A stretch of DNA of 64,000 bases from assembly GCF_024521635.1 (NCBI RefSeq), contig NW_026250406.1, positions 248,001 through 312,000 on the forward strand, given 5' to 3'. Positions 4,560 to 55,400 of the stretch are shown in pieces; the stretch's first letter is position 1; each line of letters starts with the position of its first letter. The notes beneath the pieces are model-generated. The model had not been told where the DNA came from, ran no database searches, and worked only from the letters and a program-made list of their open reading frames with translations. The position numbers were made by a program, and so were the translations under genes. Source of the stretch: Tricharina praecox. Lineage: Eukaryota.

Positions 4560-5770
4560 CATAGTCCAGCCCAGTCAACGCCAGCCCGCAGCCCGGCGCG
4601 GGTAGCCCAGCCCGGGCTGGCCTAATCTTGGCAGCCTAGCGTTGAGGAGCCCTAGCGAGTGAGTTCCAATGATTCGTTTCACTGCTAGTATCGTTGAGGG
4701 TGCAACAACCGCAACAGAATCGCCTTCCGCGACAGAATCATCTCCCGCAACAAAATCACCTCTCGCAACAAAATCACCTCCTGCAATAGAATCATCTCTC
4801 GCAACAAAATCACCTCCCCGCAACAAATCACCTCCCCGCAACAAATCACCTCCCACAACAAAATCATCTCCCGCAACAAAACCACCTCCTAATCACCCTC
4901 AATCCGATATCAGACGACGCAACTGAGAGCGCCAATCGTACACCAAGTAGCAGCCCGGGTAGTAAGCGAAAGTTAACTTCTTTCATTTACAAGCATGGGC
5001 CGAGGGCCTGAATGAAGTGGATGGAAGCTGTGACCACTGGGAATGTACTACATGTAAGTGTGATCTACGCCAACGAACGCTATTATTTCCCGACTTAAAT
5101 AAAGGTGCAAAACAAGGACTCCGGAAACGCTACAAAGCCATCGGGTCATCAACAGATATAGCTGCGACTCTGCGAGACACCTTTTGAAGGCCCACGGGCC
5201 ACTATATCGCCATGGATGGTGTAATTCCTCGCGATGATCGTCGCACTCTCAAATCTACTACATATACTGCCACACAACAGGTTGCGCTTCCTATTTCTGT
5301 CTGTAATGGCATTAGAAATCCTAAGCATTGATGCTATGTCGGCAGAGGTATGATAGAACGAGTGTTTAGTAGCGCTAAACGCATGGTGACTGACCGCCGA
5401 TATGGGTTGAAGCCGGAGATCGTTGAGGCCTGTGAATGTTTGTGGCATTGGCGTGCTTCCGCCACTAGTGACTGTGGACTTGTTTTCTTAGTAGCTTTAC
5501 ATTTTATGTACTGTTTTTTTTCCACCTGTTTTCTTCTCTTCTCTTCTGTCTTTCTTGACAGCGCTGCCTGTTTCCTATCTACATTCTCTACTCTTTCTTC
5601 CGTCCTCCGTCTCGCCGTGATAATCTTACTCTACCAAACTCTAGGATCCAGCCCGCCCAACAACGGCGGGCTGGGCTGCCAGCTCAACGGCTCCCGCCCG
5701 GGCTGATATATCAGATCAGCCCACCATCCCTAGCCCAGCCCATGGGCTTTTCGGGCTATTGCATGCCCTG
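4560..5770 (+). mobile_element. Internally deleted, degenerate hAT-family DNA transposon
   Basis: hAT C-terminal dimerisation domain RFLFLSVMALEILSIDAMSAEV/ERVFSSAKRMVTDRRYGLKPEIVEACECLWHW (about 5280-5455) with a stop/frameshift at about 5350. BED-finger-like FIYKHG...HWECTTCK at about 4982-5058. Clustered AGCCC/GGGCT subterminal motifs at both ends. Exact ends uncertain. Confidence 0.8.
4711..4890 (+). repeat. 18-bp minisatellite (GCAACAAAATCACCTCCC-like, about 10 units; reads ATKSPP) inside the hAT relic
   Basis: Direct inspection of the tandem units. Confidence 0.9.
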
Positions 5771-7220
5771 CCTACTACCTAGCACATCAAGATACTGTCG
5801 AGCAACATCCGAACTACCTCATAAACGGATACAATTGTTACAACCACCGCTCGCACGGTCTAGGCGACGAGAGCAGGTGCAATACCGATGAAACCAAGCG
5901 GCCCAGGGGATGTGAGGGTGTGGATGAGTGACAACCAATGATTTCAGGGGGTTTGTTTTTGTAGTTGAAGTCTTACCCTCCGTCCGCGCGCGCTCTGTCG
6001 GTACTCTACGCAGGGGAGGACCACCTGAGATGACAGAAATACCCGGTGCCATCTGGAGGACGTGCTACGGTACTCGTATCATATCTCGGCATTCCCCCCA
6101 GGTCTGGACGAAGGCACGCGAGTAATGCTGGCAGATCTAGGTGGGTACCTACCTGTTGAAAGGATTTGTGAATCGTGAAATTGGATGGCCGCTTAGACCA
6201 CAACGAAGACAGTGAATCAACGACTTGGTAAGAGCGAGACATATGTCGGTGGACGTAGAACATAGAAGTGGATGCTGTGTATATTCTATGATCCAGCTAC
6301 CTAGGTCGCATGCAATCAGTGAGTGGTCGGACAAACAAAAACAAAAGAAGCTACACGTGACGGCTAGCTCCGCCGGGTGATTGTCCATGCATCGATCAGC
6401 GCTCGCTCAAGGGCGGGAAATTTGGTAATTCGTGGTCGATGGGAGGGAGTGACTGGCGGGAGTGTCTGGCGGGAGTGAGGAGCGGCGAACTCATTGCCAA
6501 TGCTCGAACTCATTGGGTTCCGGCTTAACACGGACTTTCGGCGAGATACTTACACAAGTGTCTGTGGCGAAATCGGTGTATATGCATGTACTGCATGTCC
6601 CCAGCCAGTGAAATCGTCCGTCACAATTGTGAAGGGTTTCTCGAAATGAACACGGCAGTCTATCAATGGTTGTAGAGATTCAGTGAAGGGGGATGGTCGT
6701 GCTTTAGATACAATGGGAATAGATGTTAGAATGTTGGGGAGGACACCTGTGGGCACGGGGGCTAAGCGTGATTTAGAGGTTGAGTGCGTTTGCCTCCACC
6801 CTCGTTCCTTGTTGCATCTGCCGCTACCGGACGACAACCGAAGACGAAGACGCATCATCTCACACTAGCACTCTACCCTCAGCTTTCAGCAATCCACTAC
6901 CTCTCACTCGGTTCTCCCGCACCACCGTCCCTTCCCCACCACTTACCCTTTCCCCACCACCTACCCTTTCCCCACTCACATCCTCATCTTCTAAGACAGC
7001 GACTCCCTAGCTCTACAATCCCACCTGTGAGTAGGGTAAACAATTGGAGTTTCGCATGTCTCTATCGTCCTTCCTTCGATATCTCCACAGCCTCCTTGAC
7101 ATCCTACGCTCCTTTTGTGGGCTCCTCTCATTTCCTTGCGCCCACCACTTCTTCAACATCCTTTTCTACTGCATTCGCTCAACTATCACAACTACCTCAC
7201 ACAACCCTCGAGACGATACC

Positions 7221-8315
7221 ATGAGCAACATCGACGAAGAGAAGGCCATCCCTGTTGCGATCTACCGCTCGGGGATCAACAAGGAAGGAAACGTTGTCAA
7301 GTTCACCGGCAAGGGAATGGTCAGGATGACCGAGAGAGAGGTCAACGGCGACGACTCTGGCACCACGATGATAGGCGACGACGACGAGTACAGAATCAAC
7401 ATGTCGTACTTCCACGACGTCGACCTCCCTCCCTATCCGACCGGACCCCGGCCTCTGCACGCCTCGCCGCCGCTTCATCCCACCAACGGTCTCCACTCCA
7501 CTCTCCTACACCCCCCCGGATTAGAGCAGGTCTCACCGCGCCCTTCCCCCGCCGACATGACGGACGAAGAATGGGATGCCGAGCTCGCCGTCTGTTTCGG
7601 CAGCCCACTCGCCCCCTCATTCGGCGCACCCCTCGCGCGTAGCACGACCCCGCACCATCCGCAGGCCCCCGACGTCCTCCCGCTCCGGCACTTCCGCACG
7701 CGCCACGGGACCCCGTCGATCACTTCCGCGCGCTCCTCCGCCTCCGGCGAGTCCACCCCATCCCTCTCCCACTCGGTCACTTCCATCTCCCCGCTCACCC
7801 ACGCCTATCGCGCATTCATGCACAAGCTGCCGCACTACACGTTCACCTACGTTCCCGCGCCGCCATCCGCATGCATCGCCTGCGACGCGCTGTCGGCGCA
7901 CTACCGCTGCGCGAACTGCCCGCTGGTGCTGTGCCGCACGTGCGTAGACCTTATCGGACGGCTCGGCGGGTCGATCCACCGGCTTATTGGCGTTGTCGCC
8001 CGCTGGAAGCTGGGATACTCTGTGCCAGCCCGCGAGCGGGACGGAAGCGTCTGGGGTGCTGGACCGTTTCCGCCTGGTCGCAAGAAGGCAATGGTCGTCG
8101 GCGAGGTCAGGGACGATCTCGACGATGACTCGGACTCGAACTCGAGTCAGGGACAGGGAGGTGTCAGGCTCGGAGAGGACTATGAGGATCAGCGCGAGGA
8201 CGATCAGAATGATAATGCCTCGAGCATCTGGGAGGACTTTGACGACGACTGGAGTGAGGGCGATGGCTGTGAGGCTGCTACGGGAGATGTGAGTGAGGAG
8301 GAGGAGTGGTATTAG
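7221..8315 (+). CDS. Hypothetical protein with a CxxC-x8-CxxC-x4-CxxC putative zinc-binding motif and an acidic C-terminus
   Basis: Long GC-rich ORF, ATG in context accATGa at 7221. Motif CIACDALSAHYRCANCPLVLCRTC. Confidence 0.6.
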   Translation: MSNIDEEKAIPVAIYRSGINKEGNVVKFTGKGMVRMTEREVNGDDSGTTMIGDDDEYRINMSYFHDVDLPPYPTGPRPLHASPPLHPTNGLHSTLLHPPGLEQVSPRPSPADMTDEEWDAELAVCFGSPLAPSFGAPLARSTTPHHPQAPDVLPLRHFRTRHGTPSITSARSSASGESTPSLSHSVTSISPLTHAYRAFMHKLPHYTFTYVPAPPSACIACDALSAHYRCANCPLVLCRTCVDLIGRLGGSIHRLIGVVARWKLGYSVPARERDGSVWGAGPFPPGRKKAMVVGEVRDDLDDDSDSNSSQGQGGVRLGEDYEDQREDDQNDNASSIWEDFDDDWSEGDGCEAATGDVSEEEEWY

Positions 8316-47068: not shown

Positions 47069-49808
47069 TGAGTTCTTTTCGTTCTGATATCTCGGTATAA
47101 CTGTTCTCGGTGTCGTGGGGAAATGTCTGAAGCTCCAAACTATCTGGTGTCGATGGATCGCAAGTGCGGGGTATGTAGCATGAGTTAGTTGTCACTTTAT
47201 ACGCGACTGGAGAACTCAATATCTACATCCGTCGCCGGTCGCTTCCAGGCAAGCAGGTGGTACTCAAAACTCTACGTATGTGCGTCTCGGGTAACTGAAT
47301 GACTCTTCCCGTCCTCCCAATTCCTGGATTTTTCCGTGAAACGGTGGACGTTGCGCTGATGTAACTACCCTGTACGCCACTGACCGACTGCGTCCCCAGT
47401 GAAGGTCGAGTGCACATCACGAGGTGCGATTATCTTCACGTATCCTCACTCGCCTCGACTCAACTCCTCGAGCAGATGGTATCCGCCCAGCCGAACGCGC
47501 TTTGTTCACGAACACGGTACACTGCGGATGATGCTAGGTCTGGGGTTACATCACTGTTTCGGTCACCGCCGTCGTGATACTCCCTTTGGTACATGATTAC
47601 CACCGAAGAGTCGTCAACTCGAATCACTCGACTACAATCCACATCGCCAGCGTATCGTCCAGTATCACGCTTCGAAAGTTGAATCAAAACAGCTTGCGTA
47701 TCATTGGTCGGTCCTTCCCCCTCACATCTGGACGCAGACAATCTGCGGATTCAAAGATCGCCGAGTGAGTTGTAGTCATGAAATGTCACTCGTATATCCA
47801 ACTACTAACCTGGTCTGTCATCAGTGATTTCTATCAAGGCCACACTCGTCCTCCGGATGGACTGCTTTATGGATTGTATCTCCCTCTTGTGCTCCCTCCA
47901 CCTCCTGGATATCGAGGAGCCGGACCGGTACTCATCCAGTGACCGTCTTGCCGGTGTAGCCAACTTCGCGCACCGCACATGCGTAGTATAGATAGTAGCA
48001 ATACATAACTTTCCCGACTCCCGCGAACACTGATATCTATCATTTATAATACAGTCCTAAGTGGCAAGGGCAATCCCAGGGAAGCAGACGCGGAAGAGCA
48101 GGCAAGGACAAGGCCAATTCCACGAGCATGAGTGCCGCGATACGTGACCAGACCAGACCAGACCAGGAGGAAGGCCGCAAACGCGTTCCGCAAGTCTCTC
48201 GCGCTTTCCAAGTTCGCCGTTATTTACTAAGTAGTACTAGTAATTTGCCACCTCCACGCCGGCGGTGAAGATGGTGGAATCTGGATGCGTTCATCGACCT
48301 CGCGACTCCCGACTCGCAAGTGCAATTCGCCCCCCGCGACGACGCCATCAAGGAGGCGGCCATCATCCACCGATCGCATCGGTCTCCGCTACCAAAGCAA
48401 CACTATTCGTACACTGCCTCGCCGCAAACAGGCGCCACCCCCTCGGGCGCTCCATCGCAAACTCTGACCGCGTCCGGGCCTTTTTTTTTGTTTAACCATC
48501 GAAAAATCCGCTCACGAAACAAATCCCGAGTGATGTCCATGACCCACCGCCCCTAGCCCCGGTGGCTACCGTGCATATCGTAAATAAAAAACACGCAAAC
48601 AACACGGCACATGCACATCCAAATCTCGTGCAAAATATCCAAAATATCTACCATACACATCTCCCATACATATTTTCCACATGTAGTAGTATCTCACCCA
48701 ACCCCTCCTGCAGATCTATCTTGTGTAATTTATTGCACACCCTTCCACACACCTCCCTCCCCCGTCCCTCACACCCTCCCCCGTCCGCCTCCCCAGTCCG
48801 CCCCAACCCCCCCGCCCCCGACCTCCCCAACCACCACCCACCACCGGCTGAAAGCGCCAATGCGCCAATGGAGCATCCCTGCCCACCATCACCGTGACAA
48901 CCCACACGCACGCCCACCCTCCCCCAGCCCACCCCACCGCACCCTCGCCGCACCCCTGATCGAGCAAGAAGAAAACAAACAACCCAAAGCCTGCTAGTGT
49001 GTCACACTCACTCACACGAAACCGACGCGAAAAAAATACATACTCTACATGCAATCTATCTTCTGTCTGCAGGCAGGCAGGCGGGCAGGAAAAGGAGTCG
49101 CAGTAATTTTATCTATAGCACTATATTCGCTAGGTTAAACATCAGCCAATCAACCAGCTAGCCAGCCACCGCAATAATCAATTCCCACCGAATTCCCCAT
49201 GAGAAGTGCCCACCAGTTGGGAACTTGGAAGTCAATGCCAAATATCACCAAACACAAGTCACCATCACGAAGTCGGCGTCGAGGATACCAAATAGATATA
49301 AAAATAATAAGCGGAACAAAAAAGAGACCATTATATTTCCCATCGTGAAAATCATGCAAATCCCCAATGCTCCCGTGCCTCCACCCTCACCCGAGAAGAA
49401 AAGAATTGTTCGAGCCCAAGAAACCAAATCCCCAATCCACTGCCTTCCCCACATCAATCGATCCATTCCGCAAAACACTCATCCCAAAACAAAAACATAC
49501 AAAATGTCATTCCCAGAAAATGAACACTCCAGTTCAATACCTCGACTACCGACGCAGAGACCAATGATGACCACCACCCAAGAGACAACTGATGTCCTGT
49601 CCGAAAGGGAAGAGAGAGAGAAGGTGAATAGATAGATGAAAGAAAGAAAGAAAACGAATTCAGACCTCGAACCCAATCAATCTCTTCTCGCCCCCCCCCA
49701 CCCTAAACTATCCGACCGCCAAAATACGCACACATAAAACAAGACTGAAAAAAAGAAAATCGAACTTCAAAAATACACGGCTACTCCGACCAATAATACA
49801 AAGACGCC

Positions 49809-50402
49809 TTACAACTTGTGTGCAAGGTGAACCACCTTGTAGTCGACGGCGAGCTCCTTGCCGGCATCGGCAACGACGAGGACACGGACGGATCCGGAAC
49901 CACGTCCGAAGGCCTCCTTCAGGCGTCCCCAGAGGTGGCCCTGGTCGACGACCTTGAGTCCCTGCTTGATCTCGCCGGTCTCGGTCATGGCAACGAGCTT
50001 ACCGTCATCGCGGATGTCGATGAGACGGTACTGCTTGAAGACGGGGCCGAGAAGCGAGTGCAGGACGACGGAAGGCGAAGGGTGCGAGACGACACAAGGC
50101 TCCTCGTGAAGCTGCTTGGTGAAGAGATCAACACCGAGGTAACGATGCTGGCCGGTCTGGGCAGAGGTGGTGATGCGGATGATCTGACAAGGCCTGTGCT
50201 GGAGGATCACCAAGTCACCGATGCGGATGTGGTGACAAGGGATGGTGAAGGTGGTGGCCTTGGGCTGGTGCACGGACGAGATGGGGCCGGCAGGCTTGTA
50301 GGAAGGGTACTCCTTTGTCTTGTAGGCGACATCCGAGACCGAGGCACGGTCATCGTAGCTGTTGGCCTGGTTGTCGTAGTCGTAGTTGTCGTACTTGCCC
50401 AT
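49809..50402 (-). CDS. hex-1: Woronin body major protein HEX-1 (AUG-initiated short form, 197 aa); frame open upstream to about 51692
   Basis: MGKYD...TIPCHHIRIGDLVILQHRPCQIIRITTSAQTGQHRYLGVDLFTKQLHEE...GPVFKQYR...MTETGEIKQGL...GSVRVLVV...ELAVDYKVVH (eIF5A-like HEX-1 core). Confidence 0.96.
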   Translation of the reverse strand: MGKYDNYDYDNQANSYDDRASVSDVAYKTKEYPSYKPAGPISSVHQPKATTFTIPCHHIRIGDLVILQHRPCQIIRITTSAQTGQHRYLGVDLFTKQLHEEPCVVSHPSPSVVLHSLLGPVFKQYRLIDIRDDGKLVAMTETGEIKQGLKVVDQGHLWGRLKEAFGRGSGSVRVLVVADAGKELAVDYKVVHLAHKL

Positions 50403-51611
50403 GGTGTCGGTGGTAACTGAAGAAGTGTCTGAAAGGGAGTGGTCTGAGTCTGAGACGACGGAGCGAGTGGCTGTCTTTAAGGACTTGACAGAAGACTTGG
50501 GTCTGATGACAGGGATAACGGTGTGGTGGGTTTCCTTGATGACCTTGGTCTCGGAAACGACGGTGGCTGAAGTAGGGGGGGCGGGAAGGGCCTTGATAGA
50601 GTAGGTCTTGTCGGAATAGGACTTGTCGGAAAGGGACTTGTCGGAATAGGACTTGCCGGAGTAGGACTCGTCCGAGTAGGAGGTGGTTGACTTGTCGGAG
50701 GTGGAAGGGTAGATGGGTTCAACGACACGGGGACGTTGAATGGTGGTGGTGGATACCGAAGAGGACTGGGGTTGGTAGACGGTAGTGTGAGCGGCGGCGG
50801 TGTTCCGGTGGGAGTGATCAAGTTCCGAAGAGGAAGATGAGTGATGCGAGTGATGGGTTGAGTGAGCGGCCTGGTGGTTGTTGTTGTTGTGGTTGTGAGT
50901 GAGGTGAGGGAGGTGGGGGAGGTGCTGCTTTATGGATGAGATCACTGAGTGGGGACCCCGGTGATGTTGGTGGCGCAGGTGGCCGGCCGCTAAGTGGTGC
51001 TTACGCGATTTGGTCTTGTCCGAGGACGAGGATGAGGAGGACGAGGAGGAGGACGAGGAGGACGACGAGGATGAGGAGGACGAGGATGAATCTCCTTCCC
51101 GGTAAACCTTCTTGGTGATCAGGACGTCTACGTGCGAGGTAGGCGCGTGCTGCTGAGGGTGGCGGTGGGGGAGGTGAGGGCGGTGGATGTGCTTCAACGG
51201 ATTGAGCGAGTGATGCTGGTGCTGCTGGTGCTGGTGCTGCTGGTGCTGCTGGTGCTGCTGGTGCTGGTGAACCTGCTGGTGCTGGACAAGCTGCTGCTGG
51301 TGCTGGAGATGCTGGTGCTGGAGCTGGTGCTGCTGGTGCTGGAGATGTTGATGCTGCTGATGCTGCTGGTGACCGAGGTCGGCCTGGTGGGCGGTAGTGG
51401 TATGGGTTACGTGTTCTTCCGTGATTTGGAGATGGTTCTGATTTCCGTGACCTTCCTGCTCTTGCTCGTACAGCGAGGAGGAGGAGGAAGACGCGGGCTT
51501 GTGGTGAACCTCAGAGATTGTCTCCTCGTGTATGGATGTAATGCCTTCCTGGCGACTGTATGACGAGGGGAAGACACTTAGGGGGATCGGGACTCGGGCT
51601 TCGAAGTCCAG
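50403..51611 (-). CDS. hex-1: Putative CUG-initiated N-terminal extension of HEX-1 (His/Gln/Ser-rich; 600-aa long isoform)
   Basis: In frame with no stops. Begins aatCTGg = (L/M)DFEARVPIPLSVFPSSY. No minus-strand ATG in any frame from 50403 to 52194. Confidence 0.65.
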
Positions 51612-52437
51612 ATTGCCAGCGGGAATGATTCTCCGGAAAATTCTTGTCGTCCGAACACAGAGTGTAGGATGACAAGAACGGGAGAATCCTTCTTACTAAC
51701 TGAAGGAGGTTATGGGGAGTGGGGAAGGATGTGTAAAGACACGTAAGTGGATGGTTGAAGCGGGTTCTGGGAGTGATGATGGAGAGAGAATGGGAATGAT
51801 GCGGGAGACGAAAGGCGAAAAGAAGGAGCAAGAAGTAGGCGAGCGGAAGTAGCTGGCTGGGCGGGACTTTTTTTTCGACCGGTTACGTGTGTGGGGGACG
51901 GGGGGAGGGGACAAAGTTGGTAGTATCTGGCAGCACTTTCGGGTTGGGAGGGGGGGGGTCGGGTGAGTGAGTGCGTGAGTGCGTGAGCGAGTGAGTGAGT
52001 GAGATCGAAGGCGGAGGGATTGGGTTGGAGACACTGGCGAGCCAATTGGGGGAGGGGGAGGGGTGGTGGAAACGAATGGGGACGGGAGGCAAGTGAGGAA
52101 CTGGGGGGGTGGAGGGCGGGGCCAATTGCGAGTGGCGCGTGGAATTGATGCTGATGTCTGGTTAACCGGGCAATGCGGGTGAGCAGAGTACCGGCATTGG
52201 GGGGAGTGCGCAAGGCTCTGGGGGCCAATAATGCAGACCGAGGGAGGTGGCTGGCCGAAACAAAACAAGTTCCCTCTTGCGGACCGCCCACCAACAATCG
52301 TAAACAAAGCGCACGGCCGCACCACCACGCCGTACTCGTTCTCTCACTCACAGCTCGCGACTTCTCCACTCACCTCCGTCCACATCACCCACATCGCCGC
52401 CGAAAATTATTAGCTGGGTAGCTGGATAGCTGCGAGG

Positions 52438-52480
<43 letters not shown>
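52438..52480 (+). repeat. (TG)n microsatellite upstream of hex-1
   Basis: Direct inspection. Confidence 0.9.
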
Positions 52481-52482
<2 letters not shown>

Positions 52483-55400
52483 GGAAGCGATTCACTAGGC
52501 CTACTCGCCGTTCCGGCCCTCCCTCCACCACCGTCCAGCCTCCCACATTCTGGTCTGGGGTTAGTCCGATCACCAATCCCGCTCGTGGATGACGACCATT
52601 CGCCTGTCCGGTGTGGATGGCTGGGGAGCTAAACACATCTCACAGGCCAGGTTGCGTCGGACTATCCCCCAGTGCAGTTCTCTCGGAGGTCTGTCCCACC
52701 GTTGGGAACTGTCTGTCGCACTCCTGAGTCCTTCCCGCCCGCCCAGCCCCCCCCCATCCTTCTCTCCCCCGTTTCCTCTCCACCCCTCAGACCAGCAAAT
52801 CTCACGTCCGAGCTGGACTGCAGCTTCCGAAACGCCAGCTGCAACCTGATACCCAGCACGGTCGCTTCCCGTAGCTCAATCGCCCTCAGTCGAATCGAAT
52901 TGACGAGATTGTCCATATATTTAGCTCGCCCCATCAGCTCGCACTGTCGCACATCGTCAGCTGCCGCCCAACTTGCTGCTGCTGTCTCGTTTTCCCTCCC
53001 TCCCTCCCTTCCCCCAGCCTTCTCGCAACCGCGGCGCCCGCGCTGTCGGCAGGATCTCCCTAGCCCGATAGATATCGATCGCGAAAGAACGAGCGAGTGA
53101 GCGAGCGGCTTTTGTTTTTGCTTTTTTGGCCCCCGGACTAACCAACCAACTAATGCACTTGCGCTTTCCACCAGGGATCGCGGGAGATTGCAGTCGAAAA
53201 ATGGGGGGGGCCCCACACGATTGTGGCAGGTGGACACACTTGCGGAATAGTTAGCTCGATCTCCATCGTCGCCAGTGCTTGCCTGTCCGTTCCATCCCAA
53301 CCAAAGAAAACGCGTGAAAGGATGGGAAACGAAATAAAAAATGAAAATAAAACAGAAAATAGGAAAGAGAAGGGAAAAAAAGAATGGAAAAAGGAAAAAA
53401 GGAAAGAACAAAAAGTCGCTCGCTGGGACCGAACGTCGCATAGGCCTGCACACTGGCGTCGAACTTCAGCTGGGTCGGTCACTTTTGTCGTATGAATCCC
53501 GAATTGCCAGCCAACTAACGAACACCCCCCAACCATGGGATACGTGCTGTCCGTATGGTTGACCGCGGTGCTGTTCGTATGGTATGAAGTACCGGTCGCT
53601 CCTCCCGCACGCAGCCTGGCAGCAGGAAGCAGGAAAAGAAACCCTCCGATCATAAGCCAGAATGCTTCCTTCCTTCCGTTCCGGCCGTATCTGCCCGTCC
53701 TGATGCAAATGCAAAATTGATGCAAATATGCAAATGCAAATCCCAAAATCACAGAAACGAATGGACTTGGATGCGAGCACATATGTATTTCCGGATATAT
53801 AATCGTGGAATAACGGCACGGCGAATGAAACGGAAACGAGTATGTATCGTAAGAGCTACTACTCTGGGTAGTACTCTACCCACCACCTGGCACCGCCTGG
53901 AGACTGATTCGCTCTGCATATTCCTCCAGATAACTGCAACTGCAGTCAATCGAGCTGTTTCGGAAAAAGCAGATCGTGCGTTTGTTGTTTGCTCTCCCAT
54001 GCTCGCCTCAGCGCCGAGCGGACTGAGCGAGCGGTCGAAGGAAGGAAGGAAGGGAAGGGTTCATGCAGCATGTGCTTGCTTATGCCCCTCCCTCCTCAAC
54101 CTCAACCCACTTCCAAGATGTTCCCCCTGCCTCGCCGCCGTCCGATGCGTCCGCTTCGGGGAAGGAGGAAACGTGTTCTTGTTTATTTTTGTTTTATATA
54201 CGAGCGTCAAGTACCGTAGCAGGAGTAAGGTATGTTGCATCTTTATTTCAATTTCTGTGGGGCTTGATGAGTTGGCGGGTGGCGAATCACAAGTAGTTGG
54301 CATGTGAGTGCTGGTTGGTGGTGATTGTGGAGGAGCTCAATGCAAGGCGGACGGACGGACGGACGGCGCGAAACGATACGGTAGGTAGCTCCATATCGAT
54401 CGTGCCGCGCGACATTCCTGGCTGTCGGCCGCCGGGCTGTCACCGCCGGAGGGGGCTGGCCATCCAACGCCATGACCGCGATCCGCCGCCGTTGGGCAAT
54501 TGCCTCGGCCGTGGTCGTGGAACTCGCGAGTCTTCCATGCGGGGGCCGCACGCGTTGACATTCCTCATGTCGTCTCGTTCATTCTCCTGATCTTTGGCGA
54601 AGGAAGGCTGGTGATCCGAGAGTTGCGTGGCTGCGAGCTGAAAGTGCTCTATGTACCTCTAGCATGGATCCAAGTCAGGAGGTTAGCTGTATGTACTCTA
54701 GAGTTAGGTACTCTCCACTTTTCTTACCTCTACATGCCTAGCTCACACATCGACGATATCATGCGGTCAACTGCGATCTTGATTGATTGATTGATCTACC
54801 AGCTGTGGGCACTGGGGCCCTGTGTATGTAGCCGAGAAAGATCCAGATTCGACGTCCTTTTCTTTCCTTCCCTGGCGTTGTTGCGGCTTTGCAGCTCCTT
54901 GCGCCCCTTGGCCTGGCCTGGGAAAGGAGACGTGAATCGTGATTACCCCGTCGGTCAACACCGTGTCGAATCGTCACGAACCAGCCTAGGTACGGTACTA
55001 GAGTAGTACTCTACATACGGCGACGTATCTCCAATGCTATGTAATGTTTGCCTCGATGCCGGTACCTCTCAATCGATGGTTGGTGGACGGCAAGTAGAGT
55101 AGAGTATCGATGACCGAAAGTAAAGTCCCGTTTGTACTGTACGTAGACACGGTCAATTCTTCCACGTTTGCTCTCGGGGAACGCAAAGATCAACCAACAC
55201 CTATGGTATTCTAAAAGTAGCAGGTACCAACTCCCCCCGTTTGTCAGTTTGTCCGTAACGTTTGTGGTGGAGGGGGAAAATACGATGGAAACCGCGAATA
55301 AAAACAACTCACGATGACACCTTACATAGAGTACATATAAAAGAGTCGACGGACGGCTCGCTCGGGTACCTGGCAGGCATTGCCGCATTGGCATGGGCAT

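Follow-up and report, generated by a model that had tools for sequence, protein, structure and literature searches.

A conserved CUG codon suggests a second, longer product of the Woronin-body gene hex-1 in Tricharina praecox and other Pezizomycotina

Background

Does hex-1, the gene for the defining protein of the Woronin body, encode one protein or two? In the largest group of filamentous fungi this organelle serves to seal the septal pores, and its protein HEX-1 has been treated as a polypeptide of about 20 kDa. The question is raised by the hex-1 locus of the Pezizales fungus Tricharina praecox, which lies on the minus strand of a 64,000-nucleotide (nt) stretch of DNA that we refer to as the window (NCBI RefSeq assembly GCF_024521635.1, contig NW_026250406.1, positions 248,001 to 312,000; all coordinates below are those of the window). 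A preliminary description of the window had proposed that an in-frame CTG at 51611, far upstream of the canonical ATG, starts a longer HEX-1 isoform. The comparative analysis reported here supports this proposal through the presence of CTG in 80 of 80 related loci, the onset of conservation at that codon, the depletion of AUG downstream of it and coding-type selection on the extension.

Results

The HEX-1 frame and its two candidate starts

The HEX-1 frame, described as open from about 51692 to a stop at 49809, indeed forms a stop-to-stop open reading frame (ORF) of 627 codons at 49809..51692 on the minus strand. It is bounded upstream by an in-frame TAA (51693..51695, minus strand) that lies 27 codons 5' of the CTG and bars upstream starts on an unspliced transcript. 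Its first in-frame ATG is, as had been claimed, the MGKYD codon at 50402-50400, which opens the short, canonical HEX-1 coding sequence (CDS; 49809..50402, minus strand, 197 codons, with a TAA stop at 49811-49809). The coding strand was also said to lack ATG in every frame from 50403 to 52194, and this was borne out: the nearest ATGs flank the interval at 50402 and 52197, leaving an ATG-free tract of 1792 nt (50403..52194, minus strand) that runs from the promoter-proximal region to the canonical AUG. The resulting gap of 1795 nt between ATGs is the longest on the coding strand of the window, the runner-up measuring 647 nt, and dinucleotide-preserving shuffles of the tract held 5.2 ATGs on average, with none at all in 5 of 2000.

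The CTG itself (51609..51611, minus strand), the proposed start codon of the long isoform, does have the A at -3 and the G at +4 that had been noted for it (ggcaatCTGga, with the context GGC AAT at 51612..51617, minus strand, directly before the codon). It is the earliest in-frame CTG, the canonical ATG follows 403 codons further on, and the 1209 nt from one to the other contain no ATG in any frame. The N-terminal extension that it would open (50403..51611, minus strand) comprises these 403 codons, is rich in Ser, His and Gln, has no Met codon, and begins with an 18-codon stretch for the conserved N-terminal peptide LDFEARVPIPLSVFPSSY (51558..51611, minus strand).

Conservation of the CTG across related loci

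Metagenome contigs were scanned with an alignment of 14 motif segments (A1), which yielded 317 pattern matches; 273 of these were confirmed, and the best 80 were used, representing 48 clusters at 95% identity over 120 nt. One of the loci, L049, is counted separately, as it has Lys in place of Arg and lies outside the initial motif pattern; the other loci number 79. The Leu codon that opens the motif LDF[DE]ARVP.PFSVFPSSY is CTG in 80 of the 80 loci, and all 80 combine A at -3 with G at +4; the remaining Leu codons of these ORFs number 606, of which 83 (13.7%) are CTG. The codon in orthologues is thus, as the preliminary description anticipated, invariantly CTG with A at -3, and the synonymous variation that would have spoken against a start codon has no instance among the best 80 loci. 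Such variation is found in the neighbouring codons, where Ala is encoded in four ways, Arg in four, Ser in four and Asp in two, and where the codons for Pro and Tyr vary too. Retrieval was not biased towards CTG, since 60 of the 80 loci fit a second search pattern that excludes the Leu codon (four of them fit this second pattern only), and since Leu encoded by CTA or TTA was recovered at another position of the motif.

Codons were counted in 47 cluster representatives, window included. Directly before the CTG, codon -1 is AAT (20), AAC (20), AAA (6) or AAG (1), and codon -2 is mostly GGC (24), GCC (14) or GTC (7); these two codons are kept as G-N-C A-A-N in nucleotides, and the residues that they would encode differ. 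Further upstream, conservation is 15-40% in columns -20 to -3, where in-frame stops occur, whereas columns +1 to +18 are mostly invariant, so that coding conservation begins at the CTG, as had been expected of a start. The consensus of the N-terminal peptide in relatives is LDF[DE]ARVP[IV]PFS[VI]FPS[ST]Y, and positions L1, D2, F3, A5, P8, P10, S12, F14, P15, S16 and Y18 are invariant in the alignment of lineages (A3). An in-frame stop lies 4-53 codons 5' of the CTG in 78 of the 80 loci, the remaining two reaching the end of the contig, and none of the 80 has an in-frame ATG in the stretch that separates the CTG from the nearest such stop. In 66 of 79 loci, ATG is absent from every frame of the available upstream sequence (at most 300 nt).

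Codon choice is uneven within the peptide as well. Phe +2 (51605-51603 in the window) is TTT in 43 of 47 lineages, and Phe +10 and Phe +13 are TTC in 32 of 36 and 45 of 47, respectively, which hints at a possible nucleotide-level preference just 3' of the start (CTG GAY TTT GA). A downstream RNA hairpin boosting CUG initiation was considered too, and was ruled out by RNAalifold: across 44 sequences from -12 to +77 it returned no conserved hairpin (-1.49 kcal/mol, 4 pairs, no covariation). Given this lack of a conserved downstream RNA structure, the conservation of the peptide is therefore taken to act at the protein level.

Coding selection and ATG depletion in the extension

For the extension as a whole we compared 27 lineages (26 clusters and the window), amounting to 7566 extension codons or 22,698 nt. 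In 27 of 27 the reading frame is unbroken from the CTG into the HEX-1 core, and in each of them the first in-frame ATG is the canonical start, which reads MGYYD or MGKYD, with MGKWD, MVKYD and MAKHE once each. Stop codons are absent from the HEX-1 frame over all 7566 codons and number 119 and 277 in the other two frames. Indels between the window and its close relatives preserve the frame, third codon positions hold 100 of the 170 differences between the extension and that of L001, and the ratio of nonsynonymous to synonymous substitution rates (dN/dS) of the extension is 0.24 against L001 and 0.33 against L004, the two closest relatives, with 0.04-0.06 in the core. In the same vein, metatranscriptome contigs differ from the window at 15 single bases, every one of them a third codon position of this frame, and two of these sites lie in the extension (50598 and 50799). 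The extension is thus under protein-coding selection.

The same 22,698 nt are nearly devoid of ATG. Counting all frames, 3 ATGs were observed against 82.4 expected from shuffles, and 26 of the 27 lineages have none. The density of ATG is 0.13 per kb in the extension, 11.45 in the core CDS and 23.9 in the 3' flank, so that the AUG depletion suspected between the CTG and the canonical AUG is about 90-fold relative to the core CDS. Related genomic loci display ATG-free spans comparable to that of the window, of 1938 nt in L002, 1384 nt in L004, 1375 nt in L005 and 1527 nt in L006.

Transcripts across the locus

The contigs of set X1 behave as RNA, with a depth of about 85,000 at the 3' end of hex-1 as against about 15 in the neighbouring gene, where they also show a GT..AG joint. 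Over hex-1 they are colinear with the genome up to 52429. Record 5 of X1 (786 nt, depth 513) is colinear across 51682-51938 and 52012-52429, high-depth X1 contigs cover the 51614-51814 bin, with depth dropping past about 51815, and 51276-51690 is covered by a soil metatranscriptome contig of X3. Between 49400 and 52430 the RNA contigs show no intron-like joint. Because these contigs are colinear and free of such joints, the CTG is present in RNA, and splicing does not join it to an upstream exon. Two observations named beforehand as fatal to the proposal, an upstream AUG exon spliced in frame and a confinement of all transcription start sites to positions downstream of 51611, were accordingly not encountered: RNA is colinear over 51682-52429 and 51276-51690, as it is over 129 nt in the relative L045 described below, and transcripts extend upstream of 51611. 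On the main transcript the CTG would follow an ATG-free 5' leader at 51612..51755 (minus strand), the 5' end of which is approximate; L001, a contig of mRNA length from a close relative, begins at the equivalent of about 51755.

In another species, the spliced mRNA contig L045 (1592 nt) shares 98.6-99.6% identity with the genomic locus L070, two introns of which it lacks: one of 281 nt with GT..AG ends, some 119 codons past the CTG, and one of 100 nt just after MGYYD. It is colinear with L070 for 129 nt 5' of the CTG, which is in frame with the core. In intron-free, mRNA-like contigs of further lineages, the CTG stands behind leaders of 57-321 nt that are free of ATG, with the exception of one ATG in L066. 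An intron of 280-300 nt some 95-120 codons past the CTG is a recurrent feature outside the Pezizales (L070:3367-3647; L014, L036 and L010), where the known intron after MGYYD is likewise found (L070:4042-4141). It is because of the former intron that genomic ORFs from the CTG end after about 95-116 codons in non-Pezizales loci, and mRNA contigs read through. Joints within 50562-51562 in a metatranscriptome contig of X4 that is 90-95% alike (skips of 344, 423 and 130 nt) were considered as introns and rejected, their short sides measuring 36-37 nt and the coding strand offering no GT..AG; they probably reflect a related fungus with shorter repeats, or a collapse of repeats. Upstream of about 51700, stretches that X3-X5 leave uncovered were given no weight in the argument.

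Long HEX-1 proteins and mis-modelled starts in databases

The 600-residue translation started at the CTG was compared by HMMER with 1.84 billion representative proteins, giving 221 hits at E<=1e-3, of which 32 were examined. In 14 of these 32, LD[FY][DE][AG]R[VI]P...FPS.Y stands near the N-terminus, after unrelated residues of variable length, and 5 more contain the second half of the motif only. Its named bearers are Aspergillus glaucus, Aspergillus tamarii, Alternaria infectoria, Drepanopeziza brunnea ('woronin body major protein'), Mariannaea, Berkeleyomyces, Monosporascus and Ascosphaera atra. We take Aspergillus to belong to the Eurotiomycetes, Alternaria infectoria to the Dothideomycetes, Drepanopeziza brunnea to the Leotiomycetes, and Mariannaea, Berkeleyomyces and Monosporascus to the Sordariomycetes; in annotated long proteins from four fungal classes, the residues that precede (N)LDF are unrelated and of variable length. 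The preliminary description had proposed a match between the motif and long Aspergillus HexA annotations, and rightly so, as the 441-residue 'putative Woronin body protein HexA' of Aspergillus glaucus reads MVGGHYSPVA-NLDFDARVPIPFSVFPSSY.

Three of the 32 (P0010, P0054 and P0060) are annotated long Hex1 gene models in which, by comparison with frame 2 of L049, the motif exon seems to be translated in a shifted frame (...WTLTP.S.SPS.SS...), presumably to join an upstream ATG. Gene callers leave their mark inside the extension as well. The MISSIKQ starts of P0002-P0004, from close relatives, were examined as a potential internal ATG and discarded: locus L001 encodes Val there, and none of its codons before codon 438 is ATG. 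Given this Val, and given that several proteins of the collection start with V, the Met most likely represents a GTG that a prokaryote-style caller used as a start and rendered as M. GTG-like starts inside the extension, written V or (most likely) M, are seen in P0002-P0006, P0008, P0011, P0022 and P0075, all from contigs, and are a gene-caller artefact able to mimic an internal AUG. A word-index protein search with the whole extension retrieved 3 close relatives among 8000 candidates, most places having been taken up by low-complexity words.

Features of the two predicted products

The short form has 197 residues, a predicted mass of 22.0 kDa and the C-terminus AHKL; the long form would have 600 residues and a mass of 67.1 kDa with Met placed at the CUG. 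Their common core is that of HEX-1. The short form matches the Hex1 structure 1KHI with an E-value of 6.6e-66 and chains named 'Woronin body major protein' with 6e-66 to 3e-56, far more strongly than the top eIF-5A chain (5.8e-14), and Pfam assigns residues 480-619 of protein P0001 to IF5A-like_N (32.1 bits, cutoff 27.1) and eIF-5a (31.3 bits, cutoff 24.2). The blocks IPCHHIR and GQHRYLGVDLF are invariant in alignment A3. The closest named proteins to the short form belong to Morchella sextelata (78%), Tuber brumale (75%) and Geopyxis carbonaria (73%), and in all three species HEX-1 is annotated as short, at 191-217 residues.

At the C-terminus, the window and all 8 Pezizales-type sequences of A3 end in HKL (AHKL), whereas the other 18 end in SRL or ARL; the tripeptide of the peroxisomal targeting signal 1 was given as S/A-R/S-L for 460 Hex1 proteins in the available text of PMC7559983. 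More broadly, every Pezizales-type HEX-1 at hand (L001-L008, L018, L029, L063 and the window, at 49809-49820) ends in AHKL, has an MGKYD-like start and is encoded by an intronless gene, in contrast with the SRL or ARL end and the MGYYD start of the other classes.

Ser makes up 19.6% of the extension, His 14.4% and Gln 10.7%, while Met, Cys and Trp are absent. The QH repeats, poly-Ser run and SYSDK-like repeats attributed to it are present. A Pfam search of the extension found no family. In an AlphaFold2 model built on a 26-row alignment, the mean predicted local distance difference test (pLDDT) score is 47.7, values fall below 50 over nearly all of residues 1-455, and the core alone is modelled with confidence; the extension is thus predicted to be a disordered arm. 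Besides the N-terminal peptide, it holds several further short islands conserved across classes, among them G-R-E-G-H, with an invariant Glu, and an EEVRI..EE.R block.

Discussion

The results are best accommodated by a model in which hex-1 of this Pezizales fungus would give rise to two proteins from a single reading frame. The scanning ribosome would meet the CUG at 51611 first, in its strong context of A at -3 and G at +4, and a fraction of ribosomes would initiate there to make a long HEX-1 of 600 residues and about 67 kDa. This protein would be composed of the 18-residue conserved peptide, a disordered Ser/His/Gln arm of about 400 residues bearing a few conserved short motifs, and the presumably self-assembling core with its putative C-terminal peroxisomal signal. 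The ribosomes that pass the CUG would scan about 1.2 kb, kept free of AUG by selection, and reach the AUG at 50402 to make the 197-residue, 22-kDa crystal-forming HEX-1. Near-cognate start codons are decoded as Met by the initiator tRNA, and we infer Met at the CUG, the origin of both forms in one mRNA, and the ratio between them. Initiation at the CUG is well supported on comparative grounds, since the CUG is invariant, its context is fixed and conservation sets in at this very codon; leaky scanning to the downstream start is what the ATG-free tract most plausibly reflects, since AUG is almost totally absent from all its frames. Colinear RNA contigs of the window's organism and contig L045 span both starts, and they leave room for additional, shorter transcripts. 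Taken as a whole, we regard this two-protein explanation, with a CUG-initiated long form and a short form reached by leaky scanning, as probable. The arrangement of CUG and AUG is ancestral to the Pezizomycotina and not peculiar to this genome.

Among the alternatives, the one closest to this model retains the CUG for the long form and derives the short form mainly from a shorter transcript with an internal 5' end, or from proteolysis of the long form. The depth of X1, at 10,000-50,000 for the core and the 3' portion of the extension as against 5,600-7,500 for 51413-51814, would fit such a transcript, but contig depth does not validly compare abundance between parts of a gene. Cleavage of HEX-1 occurs in Neurospora crassa, according to the part of PMC7559983 available to us, and alternative hex-1 transcripts are described for other fungi in the accessible text of PMC7762394. 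What neither a separate transcript nor proteolysis explains is the near-absence of ATGs and Met codons in 26 of 27 lineages (3 ATGs for 82.4 expected): the clearing of AUG from all frames is a prediction of selection for uninterrupted scanning, and we consider this alternative unlikely, if worth keeping in mind. A start at another near-cognate codon upstream of the CTG is barely conceivable. The candidates ACG at 51650, ATT at 51641, ATC at 51629 and ATT at 51626 are all in frame and 3' of the stop at 51695-51693, and three of them have a purine at -3, yet none has G at +4, their columns are unconserved, and several lineages have a stop just 4-8 codons before the CTG.

Splicing might instead join an upstream exon in frame to the motif, so that the long frame begins at an ordinary AUG, as many automatic gene models imply when they place a Met 7 to more than 100 residues ahead of (N)LDF in annotated long HexA and Hex1 proteins. 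These leading residues, however, are unrelated to one another, and three of the 32 gene models examined seem to switch frame in the motif exon in order to gain an ATG. In 78 of 80 loci a stop precedes the CTG at a distance of 4-53 codons, no in-frame ATG intervenes in any of the 80, and RNA is colinear upstream of the CTG, over 129 nt in the spliced L045 and across 51682-52429 in the window's organism; together these leave an AUG exon very improbable. We think it just as improbable that the upstream region is nothing other than a long untranslated leader, kept AUG-free for scanning, whose open frame is a by-product of low-complexity, C-rich sequence. The coding strand is indeed C-rich and G-poor, which makes ATGs and stops rarer than average, so that about 5 ATGs, and not tens, are expected in the tract of the window; AlphaFold2, moreover, finds no fold in the extension. 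Base composition would nonetheless have to account for 0 stops in one frame against 119 and 277 in the others over 7566 codons, for a dN/dS of 0.24-0.33 accompanied by an excess of third-position differences and frame-preserving indels, and for peptide motifs that are kept while synonymous sites vary.

Several points weigh against the two-protein model or bound its reach. The avoidance of AUG is not absolute: L029 alone (L029:3010-3990) has ATGs in its extension, three in number and all out of frame, which at +52, +133 and +328 open ORFs of 35, 8 and 8 codons. Contig depth is invalid for ranking parts of the gene, and the share of transcripts that include the CUG is not derivable from it. The independence of lineages was judged by sequence clustering and not from a species tree, and orthologues with another codon could sit among the confirmed matches beyond the best 80 of 273. 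AlphaFold2 places the N-terminal peptide without confidence (pLDDT 46-48) and gives it neither a confident fold nor a confident docking contact. Finally, a word-index search with residues 22-75 returned nothing at E<=10, a result that we read as a limit of sensitivity for an 18-residue motif, because the HMMER scan then recovered the motif.

As to what the long form might do, our best guess is that it would act as a substoichiometric subunit, its arm and peptide decorating the crystal surface and linking it to components of the Woronin body or the septum. A bolder version, which we put forward as a speculation more likely wrong than right, would make long HEX-1 an ancestral and universal second subunit of the Woronin body, present at a ratio set by selection between CUG and AUG and tunable by stringency factors or stress, with the peptide and the motifs of the arm serving as docking sites. 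Such motifs could couple the crystal to the sorting and tethering machinery or to the septal pore, or could limit crystal growth.

The kind of mechanism proposed here has precedents. The mammalian FGF2, MYC and PTEN-L genes yield CUG-initiated long isoforms through leaky scanning, and hex-1 would resemble them in having a well-placed CUG upstream of, and in frame with, the main AUG, from which a longer proteoform would arise on the same mRNA; it differs from them in a far longer extension and AUG-free tract and in conservation across a whole fungal subphylum. A study from 2020 reportedly concerns, judging by its title, a fungal peroxisome-related protein with a non-AUG-initiated alternative N-terminus, where the choice of start changes targeting. 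In hex-1 the putative peroxisomal signal is C-terminal and present in both forms, and the extension is formed by some 400 residues predicted to be disordered.

The nearest parallel among fungal genes is cpc-1 of Neurospora crassa, for which, together with its homologues in the Pezizomycotina, near-cognate-initiated N-terminal extensions were reported by Ivanov et al. in 2017 (PMC5487733). To judge from the main text of that paper, which does not mention hex-1, the two cases share an in-frame extension 5' of the annotated AUG that has no AUG of its own and was found by comparative sequence analysis, near-cognate codons kept in a context of A at -3 and G at +4, and a distribution confined to the Pezizomycotina, throughout which the feature is conserved. 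In cpc-1, as described there, several partly conserved candidate codons (e.g. a CUG in 73 of 100 species) lie among regulatory upstream ORFs (uORFs), whereas hex-1 has a single CUG, invariant in all loci examined, with a sharp onset of conservation and 0.6-1.3 kb cleared of AUG. The products differ too, hex-1 encoding a structural protein of an organelle and cpc-1 a transcription factor.

Within hex-1 itself, the accessible text of PMC7762394 reports isoforms of HEX-1/HexA that arise by alternative splicing of a conserved intron after MGYYD, the same intron that we observe in non-Pezizales lineages (100 nt in L070). Splice isoforms and the CUG form are alike in stemming from one gene and in being heterogeneous at the N-terminus, but the former share the canonical AUG as their start and are some 20 residues apart in length (188 and 209 residues in V. 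dahliae), as that text has it, whereas the CUG form would add 200-440 residues upstream of this codon. The same source allows that long annotated Hex1 extensions may be annotation errors. In PMC7559983, 51% of 460 GenBank Hex1 entries are given as 405-534 residues long, and the text available to us offers no mechanism. Our literature search, the scope of which excluded subscription journals and the supplements of PMC5487733, found no link of HEX-1 to non-AUG initiation or leaky scanning. As far as could be found, then, the kind of mechanism is known, and its occurrence in hex-1, the depth of its conservation and the length of the AUG-free tract are new.

If the two-protein model is correct, a conserved proteoform of 45-70 kDa, missed by gene callers restricted to AUG, would be a new component of a well-studied organelle. 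It would account for the half of annotated Hex1 proteins that are 405-534 residues long with hypervariable N-termini, and would give annotation pipelines a clear rule for hex-1. The gene would also offer an unusually clean natural case of non-AUG initiation and leaky scanning, in that the CUG is single and invariant, its context is fixed, and as much as 1.3 kb has been cleared of AUG in all frames. Should the long form prove to be a second subunit, 25 years of work on HEX-1 would have covered one of two gene products, and the 'length variation' of annotated Hex1 would turn out to be one conserved proteoform mis-modelled in many ways.

Other features of the locus

The 3' untranslated region of hex-1 lies at 49403..49808 (minus strand). 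Its extent is approximate, contigs of X1, X4 and X5 covering 49447-49690 onwards, and there is no RNA cover below the 49403 bin. At the opposite end, the first ATG above the ATG-free tract opens a short uORF of 11 codons (MPVLCSPALPG and a stop; 52162..52197, minus strand), which is carried solely by a longer, low-depth transcript form. A (CA)n microsatellite of about 18 units lies at 52444-52480 on the minus strand, about 840 nt 5' of the CTG and near the 5' limit of the low-depth long contig. The neighbouring gene (53021-54800, minus strand), covered by X1 at a low depth of about 15, has a 69-nt GT..AG intron at 54659-54727.

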